Origin: a virus
Taxonomy: Duplodnaviria > Heunggongvirae > Uroviricota > Caudoviricetes
Virus record (IMG/VR): IMGVR_UViG_2671180631_000002
DNA: 25,614 bases
Strand: one strand, 5' to 3'
In this document: in pieces, positions 1 through 3,000 of the stretch
Position numbering within the stretch: the first letter of the stretch is position 1
How the letters are laid out: the number at the start of each line of letters is the position of its first letter
Program-made: the position numbers

Positions 1-3000
1 GGTTATCGCTCGCCACGGGAATATCTGCGGCAGCGGGCTTGTAATGGGTTAAGTGATAACAGATGTCTGGAAATATAGGGGCAAATCCAATCGTCGCCGT
101 ATTCCCGTATTAACAGAGACCGTAGCCCGACGGGGAACTCCTTCTGCGCGAGTGTGCGGGAATAATCAAAAACGATGCACACCGGGGTTACCGGGTACAC
201 ATATTTCATCATGCCAGCGAGTCCGGTTCTGGCACGGAAGAAACCGGACGTTATGATTTAGTGCGGAAATATTTGTGTAGTGTTCTGTATGTTCTCAGTA
301 AAGAGTAATGAATTATCAAAGGTATAGTAATACCTTTTGTTTTCGTGGATATTTGTAATCCATCTGAAAACCCCTGCTGTAGCAAGATTTTTCCTGTATT
401 CGTAAAATGATAACTCTCCTGATTTGAATCCTTTTAAGGTGGCTTCTATAAGGCATTTATTTTTTGAAAATCTTACATTTACAACCTTACCCTGTCCTTT
501 TATTAAAACCGTATTATCGTTTTCAAGAACAAGATGAATATTCTCTGTGGCTAAATAGTAAATGTAATGTGAGACATTGTGACGTTTTAGTTCAGAATAA
601 AACCAGTGATAGTTTAAATTATTTCGCACTTTATCGAATATTTGTTTAAAAATGGCAACCTGAGCCATTGTAGTACCTTCCATGTGATATGAGGGGGCGT
701 AGTCTGCACGATTATCTAAATTGCTTCAATCTGGTCTAACCTGTTTTCTGAGCAATTCAGTAATGTCACTCTTTTCTTTGTTTGCTTCAGGCGAAACTCT
801 TTTTTCTGAGCACAGTCTCCGGCGGCAGGCTTCAATGACCCAGGCTGAGAAATTCCCGGACCCTTTTTGAACAAGAGCGATGTTAATTTGTTCAATCATT
901 TGGTTAGGAAAGCGGATGTTGCGGGTTGTTGTTCTGCGGGTTCTGTTCTTCGTTGACATGAGGTTGCCCTGTATTCAGTGTCGCTGATTTGTATTGTCTG
1001 AAGTTGTTTTTACGTTAAGTTGATGCAGATCAATTAATACGATACCTGCGTCATAATTGATTATTTGACGTGGTTTGATGGCGTAGATGCACGTTGTGAC
1101 ATGTAGATGATAATTATTATCATTTTGCGGGTCCTTTCCGGCGATCCGACAGGTTACGGGGCGGAAGGCGCGCGGGTTTTCGCTATTTATGACAATTTTC
1201 CGGTTTAAGGCGTTTCCGTTCTTCTTCGCCGTAACCTAATGTTTTTATTTAAAACACCCCCTGAAAAGAAAGGAAACGACAGGTGCTGAAAACGGGCTTT
1301 TTGGCCTCTGTCGTTTCCTTTCTCTGTTTTTGTCCGTGGAATGAACAATGGAAGTCAACAAAAAGCAGCTGGCTGACATTTTCGGTGCGAGTATCCGTAC
1401 CATTCAGAACTGGCAGGAACAGGGAATGCCCGTTCTGCGAGGCGGTGGCAAGGGTAATGAGGTGCTTTATGACTCTGCCGCCGTTATAAGATGGTATGCC
1501 GAAAGGGATGCTGAAATTGAGAACGAAAAGCTGCGCCGGGAAGTTGAAGAACTGCGGCAGGCCAGCGAGACAGATCTCCAGCCAGGGACTATTGAGTACG
1601 AACGCCATCGACTTACGCGTGCGCAGGCCGACGCACAGGAGCTGAAAAATGCCAGAGACTCCGCTGAAGTGGTGGAAACCGCATTCTGTACTTTCGTGCT
1701 GTCGCGGATCGCAGGTGAAATTGCCAGTATTCTCGACGGGATCCCCCTGTCGGTGCAGCGGCGTTTTCCGGAACTGGAAAACCGACATGTTGATTTCCTG
1801 AAACGGGATATCATCAAAGCCATGAACAAAGCAGCCGCGCTGGATGAACTGATACCGGGGTTGCTGAGTGAATATATCGAACAGTCAGGTTAACAGGCTG
1901 CGGCATTTTGTCCGCGCCGGGCTTCGCTCACTGTTCAGGCCGGAGCCACAGACCGCCGTTGAATGGGCGGATGCTAATTACTATCTCCCGAAAGAATCCG
2001 CATACCAGGAAGGGCGCTGGGAAACACTGCCCTTTCAGCGGGCCATCATGAATGCGATGGGCAGCGACTACATCCGTGAGGTGAATGTGGTGAAGTCTGC
2101 CCGTGTCGGTTATTCCAAAATGCTGCTGGGTGTTTATGCCTACTTTATAGAGCATAAGCAGCGCAACACACTTATCTGGTTGCCGACGGATGGTGATGCC
2201 GAGAACTTTATGAAAACCCACGTTGAGCCGACCATCCGCGATATTCCGTCGCTGCTGGCGCTGGCTCCGTGGTATGGCAAAAAGCACCGGGATAACACGC
2301 TCACTATGAAGCGTTTTTCCAATGGTCGTGGCTTCTGGTGCCTGGGCGGTAAAGCGGCAAAAAACTACCGTGAAAAGTCGGTGGATGTGGCGGGTTATGA
2401 TGAACTTGCTGCCTTTGATGAGGATATTGAACAGGAAGGCTCTCCGACGTTCCTTGGCGACAAACGTATTGAAGGCTCGGTCTGGCCAAAGTCCATCCGT
2501 GGCTCCACGCCCAAAGTGAGAGGCACCTGCCAGATTGAGCGTGCAGCCAGTGAATCCCCGCATTTTATGCGTTTTCATGTTGCCTGCCCGCACTGCGGGG
2601 AGGAGCAGTATCTTAAATTTGGCGACAAAGAGACGCCGTTTGGCCTCAAATGGACGCCGGATGACCCCTCCAGCGTGTTTTATCTCTGCGAGCATAATGC
2701 CTGCGTCATCCGCCAGCAGGAGCTGGACTTTACTGATGCCCGTTATATCTGCGAAAAGACCGGGATCTGGACCCGTGATGGCATTCTCTGGTTTTCGTCA
2801 TCCGGTGAAGAGATTGAGCCACCTGACAGTGTGACCTTTCACATCTGGACAGCGTACAGCCCGTTCACCACCTGGGTGCAGATTGTCAAAGACTGGATGA
2901 AAACGAAAGGGGATACGGGAAAACGTAAAACCTTCGTAAACACCACGCTCGGTGAGACGTGGGAGGCGAAAATTGGCGAACGTCCGGATGCTGAAGTGAT

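Follow-up and report, generated by a model that had tools for sequence, protein, structure and literature searches.

The stretch analysed here, 25,614 nucleotides of IMG/VR virus record IMGVR_UViG_2671180631_000002 (Caudoviricetes) and called the window in what follows, carries near its left end a cassette of two minus-strand open reading frames (ORFs). The cassette starts 257 bp into the window and is followed, in this order, by cos, the small terminase gene Nu1, gene A and a lambda-type structural operon. A first-pass annotation made from the sequence alone had placed the two ORFs at 726-959 (77 amino acids, aa) and 258-683 (141 aa), and these coordinates are exact. The families proposed for them, DUF3950-like and DUF1398-like, were both assigned by a Pfam profile search above the cut-offs. 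The cassette is composed as follows:

726-959, minus strand: DUF3950 (YlcI-YnfO) gene, 77 aa; core residues 1-49, variable C-terminal tail residues 50-77
258-668, minus strand: DUF1398 (YdfO/YbcV/lambdap78 family) gene, 136 aa; the frame opens at an upstream ATG at 683 (141 aa)
676-681, minus strand: GGAAGG, read from the sequence, a Shine-Dalgarno-like motif with 7 nt between it and the ATG at 668

The 77-aa ORF scored 72.8 bits against the Pfam profile PF13132 (DUF3950; gathering cut-off 25) and 35.2 bits against the NCBIfam profile NF041551 (YlcI_YnfO_N; cut-off 30). The DUF1398 ORF scored 147 bits against PF07166 (cut-off 22, E 3e-43) over profile positions 1-119 of 119, and in a phmmer search it matched the nuclear magnetic resonance (NMR) structure of YdfO (PDB 2HH8; E 1.4e-69, residues 1-140). 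Its product is 75-77% identical in amino acid sequence to K-12 YdfO, K-12 YbcV and lambda lambdap78, the value for YdfO (136 aa) being 75%. In the DUF3950 core (codons 1-49), at least 23 nt are different in the Shiga toxin (Stx)-phage homologues, mostly synonymously, with a synonymous divergence (dS) of 0.75-1.4, a nonsynonymous divergence (dN) of 0.06 and an omega of 0.04-0.09 (Nei-Gojobori); by the same method, the omega of DUF1398 is 0.2-0.35 in comparisons with lambda, ydfO and ybcV. Since they lie far above the Pfam thresholds and are under purifying selection, both ORFs are real genes and not chance ORFs. The description of the pair as conserved lambdoid cos-proximal ORFs of unknown function also stands, as they are carried by lambda, DLP12, Qin and 434.

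For the DUF1398 gene, the reading frame given by the first-pass annotation is correct, and the length of 141 aa is probably too long: the true start is probably not the ATG at 683 but the second one, at 668. The start at 668 is used by RefSeq proteins, by PhiR49_1 and by K-12 ydfO, and the GGAAGG upstream of it is conserved in K-12 Qin and PhiR49_1. With this start the product is 136 aa long and the intergenic gap measures 57 nt. The allele of the window is distinct but common, with 1,063 E. coli genome records matching it at 99% identity or more. No signal peptide and no hydrophobic segment were found in the protein (Kyte-Doolittle 19-residue maximum 0.39). Structure prediction with AlphaFold2 (AF2), which had been suggested as a check, gave helices for the DUF3950 protein, with a predicted local distance difference test score (pLDDT) of 69, and a poor model for the DUF1398 protein (shallow alignment; pLDDT 47, template modelling score of about 0.4 to 2HH8). 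The DUF1398 model was too poor to compare folds, and no conclusion about the fold was based on it. Its Foldseek matches to fosfomycin-resistance/glyoxalase proteins had E values >1 and were rejected as noise. A duplication within DUF1398, with a helix and three strands in each copy, was indicated only weakly (hhalign P 0.01).

Both genes are transcribed leftward, away from Nu1 and convergently with the lysis genes. The lysis genes are outside the window; S, R and Rz are found 0.35-1.2 kb leftward in PhiR49_1 and E. coli IH5, and from these relatives they would be expected to the left of the window. The cassette had been located between the lysis region and cos; the cos side of this location was found in the window itself, and the lysis side is placed by relatives. 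It had also been described as convergent towards the structural operon, which was an error, as the ORFs run leftward and diverge from Nu1 (1348, plus strand), with 388 nt between the Nu1 and DUF3950 starts. Because they run leftward and converge with the lysis genes, both ORFs are antisense to the late transcript, which crosses cos on its way from the lysis genes into Nu1. The packaging genes to the right are:

1348-1893, plus strand: Nu1 small terminase gene, from the ORF list and the lambda annotation
1868-3793: A gene, followed by the lambda-type structural operon

The two genes had been reported as clearly lower in GC than these packaging genes. The difference is strong only for the DUF1398 gene, which has a GC content of 0.317 (0.30 at third codon positions); no unmasked stretch of the window is lower, except at about 24.7-25.1 kb. 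For the DUF3950 gene the value is 0.444 (0.483 in the conserved core, 0.379 in the tail), compared with 0.527 for Nu1 and 0.541 for A.

The label 'head protein' is given to DUF1398 proteins by PHROG 413 and by RefSeq phage records, and lambdap78 is called a 'putative envelope protein' (phage records with one or the other label include NC_001416, NC_042057 and NC_049953); only these database labels speak for a protein that would be a component of the virion or of the envelope. In lambda, lambdap78 was non-essential by CRISPR interference (PMC10695390), and lambda that had acquired ybcV::kan was viable (PMC3945230). The labels are unsupported, because the gene is antisense to the structural transcript, the protein lacks a signal peptide and a hydrophobic segment, the lambda homologue is dispensable and homologues are found in non-phage chromosomal contexts and in Bacteroidota. 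In addition, the gene is absent from most phages that have the same head genes. We consider a virion or envelope role almost negligible.

A second correction concerns the literature on YdfO. Induction of ydfO by ionic liquid was reported (PMC4077768). The same paper, citing PMC3105296, attributes to YdfO overexpression an increased resistance to oxidative stress; this statement was rejected as a name mix-up with YfdO of prophage CPS-53, as PMC3105296 reports YfdK, YfdO and YfdS of CPS-53 and never mentions ydfO. Similarly, ydfO is listed as a target gene in PMC9181523, although the peak described there falls between yfdO and yfdP.

The two genes of the cassette are separable and do not form an obligate pair. 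Phage records were counted by tblastn, and E. coli counts were taken from 5,426 complete genomes. Among phage records, 155 gave a match to DUF3950 and 43 a match to DUF1398. In E. coli, the DUF3950 core occupies 9,549 places in 4,184 genomes (77%), and DUF1398 occupies 3,860 places in 3,020 genomes. DUF1398 is absent from at least 60% of the E. coli DUF3950 copies and from 112 of the 155 phage records with DUF3950; for example, in BP-4795, Stx1_699 and Lys8385Vzw, DUF3950 is by itself in the interval from Rz to an HNH/TerS/TerL packaging module. DUF1398 also occurs by itself: in Klebsiella, Raoultella, Kluyvera and Pseudocitrobacter, homologues with 34-39% identity lie on the chromosome as stand-alone genes, and more distant ones in Epilithonimonas (Bacteroidota) adjoin a probable alpha/beta-hydrolase ORF, assigned by eye from the translation. 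No DUF3950 ORF was found within 4 kb of the DUF1398 homologues in any of these genera, and one E. coli-like prophage locus (L034) carries DUF1398 without DUF3950.

The closest known arrangement is the ynfO-ydfO pair (b4533-b1549) of the K-12 prophage Qin, which has the same families in the same order and on the same strand, the same 57-nt spacer, the Shine-Dalgarno sequence, a PdhR-box-like sequence and the same 388 nt to the Nu1 homologue nohA. Qin YnfO is about 97% identical to the 77-aa protein of the window, whereas the window DUF1398 protein is only 75% identical to YdfO, and the mosaic junction lies at the DUF1398 start codon. Qin is a decayed prophage, whereas the pair of the window adjoins an apparently complete lambda-type structural operon. 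Lambda (lambdap78, lambdap79 and an unannotated 64-aa ORF) and DLP12 (ybcV-ybcW-ylcI) carry the same two families, in antisense orientation, in the Rz-to-cos interval. The lambda DUF3950 ORF (48139-48303) is not annotated in NC_001416; its core differs from that of the window at 4 of 147 nt. In contrast to the window, both lambda and DLP12 have a plus-strand gene of about 560 bp, lambdap79 or ybcW, between the two genes, and their DUF3950 tail is short and unrelated (64 aa). Phage 434 also carries members of the cos-proximal families, its DUF3950 gene being followed by a bor-like gene.

Within the DUF3950 family alignment, a near-invariant core of 49 residues is joined to at least six unrelated types of C-terminal tail, and the homology between the window and lambda ends at about codon 55; for these reasons the tails look like products of mosaic junctions. 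One of these types, that of the 77-aa protein, has DUF1398 directly next to it in 79 of 80 IMG/VR loci, the single exception being an IS5 insertion. Such linkage would be predicted if one DNA block were inherited as a whole. The same near-invariant YnfO tail is found with DUF1398 alleles that are 25% divergent, and the recombination junction falls exactly at the DUF1398 start. The two genes, about 97% (YnfO) and 75% (DUF1398) identical to their K-12 counterparts, therefore have different recombination histories.

These observations bear on the proposal, flagged as undemonstrated in the first-pass annotation, that the cassette resembles a toxin-antitoxin (TA) or defence module. Such a module would be of type II or act by abortive infection, with the tail of a ribbon-helix-helix (RHH) antitoxin neutralizing a DUF1398 'toxin' and with repression of the operon by the antitoxin. 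A small RHH-like gene followed at 57 nt by a 136-aa gene on the same strand is the arrangement expected, AF2 predicted a tail helix at residues 59-72 with low confidence, a weak HicB-like match was obtained in PHROG (E 0.055), and the linkage in 79 of 80 loci is consistent with a pair. Nevertheless, most DUF3950 copies have no DUF1398, DUF1398 occurs by itself in other genera and at L034, an oppositely oriented gene splits the two in lambda and DLP12, and a near-invariant YnfO tail coexists with DUF1398 alleles 25% apart. A promoter-like site and a PdhR-box-like sequence, described below, lie between the genes. RHH-type antitoxins of type II systems are known (RelB, ParD, Mtb MazE, KacA), but the partner here does not belong to a known toxin family; unlike these antitoxins, DUF3950 shows no obligate co-occurrence with a partner, and its tail is hypervariable and replaced wholesale at mosaic junctions. 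Neither protein matched a toxin, antitoxin or defence family in Pfam, NCBIfam or PADLOC. In PADLOC-DB v2 there was no significant match, only Csx23 at E 0.025, and none for the small protein. The NMR structure 2HH8 suggests that YdfO can be produced at a high level without a cloned partner. We find a TA or abortive-infection function quite improbable; the genes are separable, with different histories, and the pair is the already known, ordinary Qin-type ynfO-ydfO arrangement, for which a TA or defence role is neither demonstrated nor likely.

Two further candidate findings were rejected. A match of DUF1398 to HEPN_AbiA_CTD (E 0.014) relied on the 5 residues that precede the probable start, and was lost when these were left off. 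A fusion protein cluster (P0133; 233 aa, 761 members) consists of the two ORFs joined by a TGA read as Trp, the DUF3950 TGA stop being in frame with the upstream DUF1398 ATG (683) across 14 sense codons (684-728); it is most likely a gene-call artefact of genetic code 4 and gives no evidence of functional linkage.

Candidate regulatory sequences were found in the cassette and upstream of it:

711-738, minus strand: TAGACC-16-GATAAT, a site resembling a sigma-70 promoter, upstream of the DUF1398 gene, in and just past the DUF3950 3' end; 9 of 12 consensus matches
729-745, minus strand: PdhR-box-like AACAGGTTAGACCAGAT in the DUF3950 3' end, overlapping the -35 of the promoter-like site
1029-1061, no strand assigned: 33-bp imperfect palindrome ATCAATTAATACG / CGTCATAATTGAT, an inverted repeat 70-100 nt upstream of the DUF3950 start

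In an alignment, the PdhR-box-like AACAGGTTAGACCAGAT differs by one base from the K-12 Qin sequence AAcaGGTcagACCAgaT, which was listed as a PdhR site between ynfO and ydfO identified by genomic systematic evolution of ligands by exponential enrichment (PMC7660256). PdhR sites were reported upstream of both ybcV and ydfO, and ybcV mRNA was 10-fold lower in a pdhR mutant (PMC7660256); by analogy, PdhR may control the DUF1398 gene in this element. Transcripts of the K-12 homologues were detected (PMC7660256, PMC4077768). The 33-bp palindrome is identical in lambda, 434 and 2H10 and might, speculatively, be an operator; upstream of DUF3950 in the HNH-type contexts, neither a counterpart of the palindrome nor a shared operator motif was found. 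Rfam and tRNA scans of window positions 1-1500 gave nothing relevant.

The adjacency of the two genes on one strand and the close association of DUF1398 with the 77-aa variant could also indicate that YnfO is a dedicated regulator of the downstream DUF1398 gene, in a regulator-effector operon that would give the lysogen a phenotype. We regard this as rather unlikely: DUF3950 mostly occurs without DUF1398, the DUF1398 gene has its own promoter-like site and PdhR-box-like sequence, and the two are not co-transcribed in lambda and DLP12.

An RHH-like pattern had also been reported for the small protein in the first-pass annotation. The DUF3950 protein is highly basic (pI 10.9), as is its core, and the residues N36-F37-S38 (NFS motif) are invariant throughout the family alignment. 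The Arg/Thr-rich segment, which had been assigned to the tail, is the N-terminal arm (residues 3-16). In the AF2 model an unpaired N-terminal arm is followed by helices 19-32 and 34-54, at positions that match those of Arc. In an alignment with P22 Arc, Mnt and other RHH repressors, the DUF3950 residues NIRFP...G-S-G-N-F-S correspond to NLRWP...G-R-S-V-N-S of Arc (beta-strand, helix A, turn, helix B), and hhalign placed R13-G33 of the core on F10-G30 of an Arc-family alignment, in the expected strand/helix-A register. This match had a P of 0.0023 and a probability of 12.5%, and 2 of 200 column shuffles scored as well or better. Unlike Arc and Mnt, the DUF3950 gene is not in an immunity region and has no significant Pfam match to an Arc/RHH profile. 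Searches of the PDB by Foldseek with the DUF3950 model, and of PDB sequences with a profile of the family alignment, returned nothing, and Pfam scans (E up to 5) of all members of the DUF3950 and DUF1398 alignments gave no consistent second family. The predicted helices and the Arc register thus agree with the RHH-like pattern, whereas the structure and profile searches do not bear it out; an RHH fold is plausible but unproven, and dimerization and DNA binding by the DUF3950 protein would follow from it.

The position of the DUF3950 gene is fixed. Its start is divergent from that of the first packaging gene in nine of nine contexts, despite unrelated packaging modules; the distance is 388 nt where that gene is Nu1 or noh (the window, lambda, 2H10, Qin and DLP12) and 41 nt where it is HNH (BP-4795, Stx1_699 and Lys8385Vzw). 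This position, the very strong purifying selection (omega 0.04-0.09) and the report of DUF3950 from capsid-forming satellites of the phage-inducible chromosomal island (PICI) type (PMC13612085) would be in keeping with a role in late-operon or packaging biology, for example by binding close to cos or to the first packaging gene, where the protein might modulate read-through transcription or the use of cos, with DUF1398 as unrelated cargo. Against this proposal, the gene lies antisense to late transcription, the two upstream contexts showed no DNA motif in common and there is no experimental link; we hold it to be unlikely.

We conclude that the cassette is best explained, with a probability of about 0.6, as two independent, non-essential accessory genes ('morons') in the lambda-like variable segment between the lysis genes and cos. 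The genes are present or absent among otherwise collinear relatives, and DUF1398 has a GC content of 0.317 between neighbours at 0.53-0.54. In this they resemble the lambda morons bor and lom, which are optional late-region genes of deviant composition, present or absent among close relatives. The bor and lom products are envelope proteins with known lysogen phenotypes; the pair of the window differs in this respect, as such phenotypes are known for bor and lom only. The leftward, antisense orientation suggests expression from own promoters in the lysogen rather than late lytic expression. Under the accessory-gene explanation, the N-terminal core of the DUF3950 protein would most likely form an RHH dimer that binds DNA, and the protein would probably be a small transcriptional regulator of its own leftward promoter next to cos, with a tail made of whatever sequence follows the mosaic junction. 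The DUF1398 gene would be low-GC cargo that encodes a soluble cytoplasmic protein of the YdfO fold, expressed from its own promoter-like site under a PdhR-type box.

Several observations weigh against this explanation. The linkage of the 77-aa tail with DUF1398 in 79 of 80 loci also fits functional pairing. The consensus scan gave 4 promoter-like sites in the region, a number that does not exceed chance (2.5 expected), and the hairpin after the DUF1398 stop was not a canonical terminator (z -0.23). Expression of this element's genes in a lysogen is something that we infer, and neither family has a demonstrated function.

The sequences on either side of the cassette were also inspected. At the left end of the window, a minus-strand ORF at 3-212 (69 aa) has a PHROG match at its C-terminal part only, and nt 1-89 diverge from PhiR49_1 and match other E. 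coli prophages; positions 1-212, which separate the cassette from the lysis genes, are probably a remnant or do not code for protein. To the right lies the cohesive-end nicking site:

1159-1170, plus strand: 12-nt equivalent of cosN, outside the cassette, from an alignment with lambda

It reads GGGCGGAAGGCG, where lambda, PhiR49_1 and DLP12 have GGGCGGCGACCT: five of the last six bases are changed, between conserved flanks. It is a rare variant; over positions 1135-1200, only four E. coli genome records have at least 98.5% identity, compared with 2,774 E. coli records in the lambda-type band of 90-95%, and phages YDC107_1 and PhiR46_1 reach 95.5%. A second truly low-GC stretch is found past the tail-fibre ORFs at the far end of the window (about 24,350-25,200; 0.28-0.39 in 426-bp windows), and may be another accessory-gene region; the N run at 24538-24592 explains only part of the dip. 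Masked N runs in the tail genes (17399-17695, 22375-22658 and 24538-24592) produce false GC minima in composition profiles.

With respect to the distribution of the families, distant DUF3950-like sequences (about 40% identity; L057 and PMC13612085) occur in PICI-like satellites of Klebsiella and Enterobacter. In the single case that was inspected, vB_KppS-Ant (L057, 3001-3174), the match is away from packaging genes and overlaps an annotated coding sequence on the opposite strand. Contigs of about 3.5 kb or 48.5 kb with the exact sequence of the lambda right end occur in dozens of assemblies from unrelated organisms, among them Kitasatospora, Brevibacillus, Flavobacterium and Pedobacter; these contigs fall among loci L012-L040 of the genome-contig scan. 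We interpret them as contamination by lambda control or spike-in DNA, which inflates the apparent host range of both families.

As a pair, the two genes add little to what is known, since the ynfO-ydfO type already has a RefSeq annotation in over half of the complete E. coli genomes that were searched. The analysis corrects the 'head' and 'envelope' database labels and the YdfO/YfdO mix-up, and the separability of the modules argues against a TA or defence pair. The region is also a site of gain and loss for lambdap79, reported as the activator of the Vulcan NADase defence; lambda-vir escapers from Vulcan had lost lambdap79, probably via recombination with Qin (bioRxiv 10.64898/2026.09.04.749371). 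This is the one connection of the region with defence, and it involves a gene that the window lacks. The window has the lambdap79-free form, and its arrangement is the product expected from such a lambda x Qin recombination.

The most interesting part of the cassette is the DUF3950 gene: it is uncharacterised and strongly constrained, its place beside the first packaging gene is fixed, and 77% of complete E. coli genomes have it. Two further proposals, to which we give a small probability even when they are taken jointly, start from this gene. Either DUF3950 is a position-locked RHH regulator at the lysis/packaging junction, which lambdoid phages keep antisense whatever the packaging system and which might control read-through into the packaging region or its use, or the 77-aa form neutralizes DUF1398, in a new TA-like or exclusion pair. 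If either version were true, a real function would be assigned to a gene that the reference lambda record leaves unannotated.

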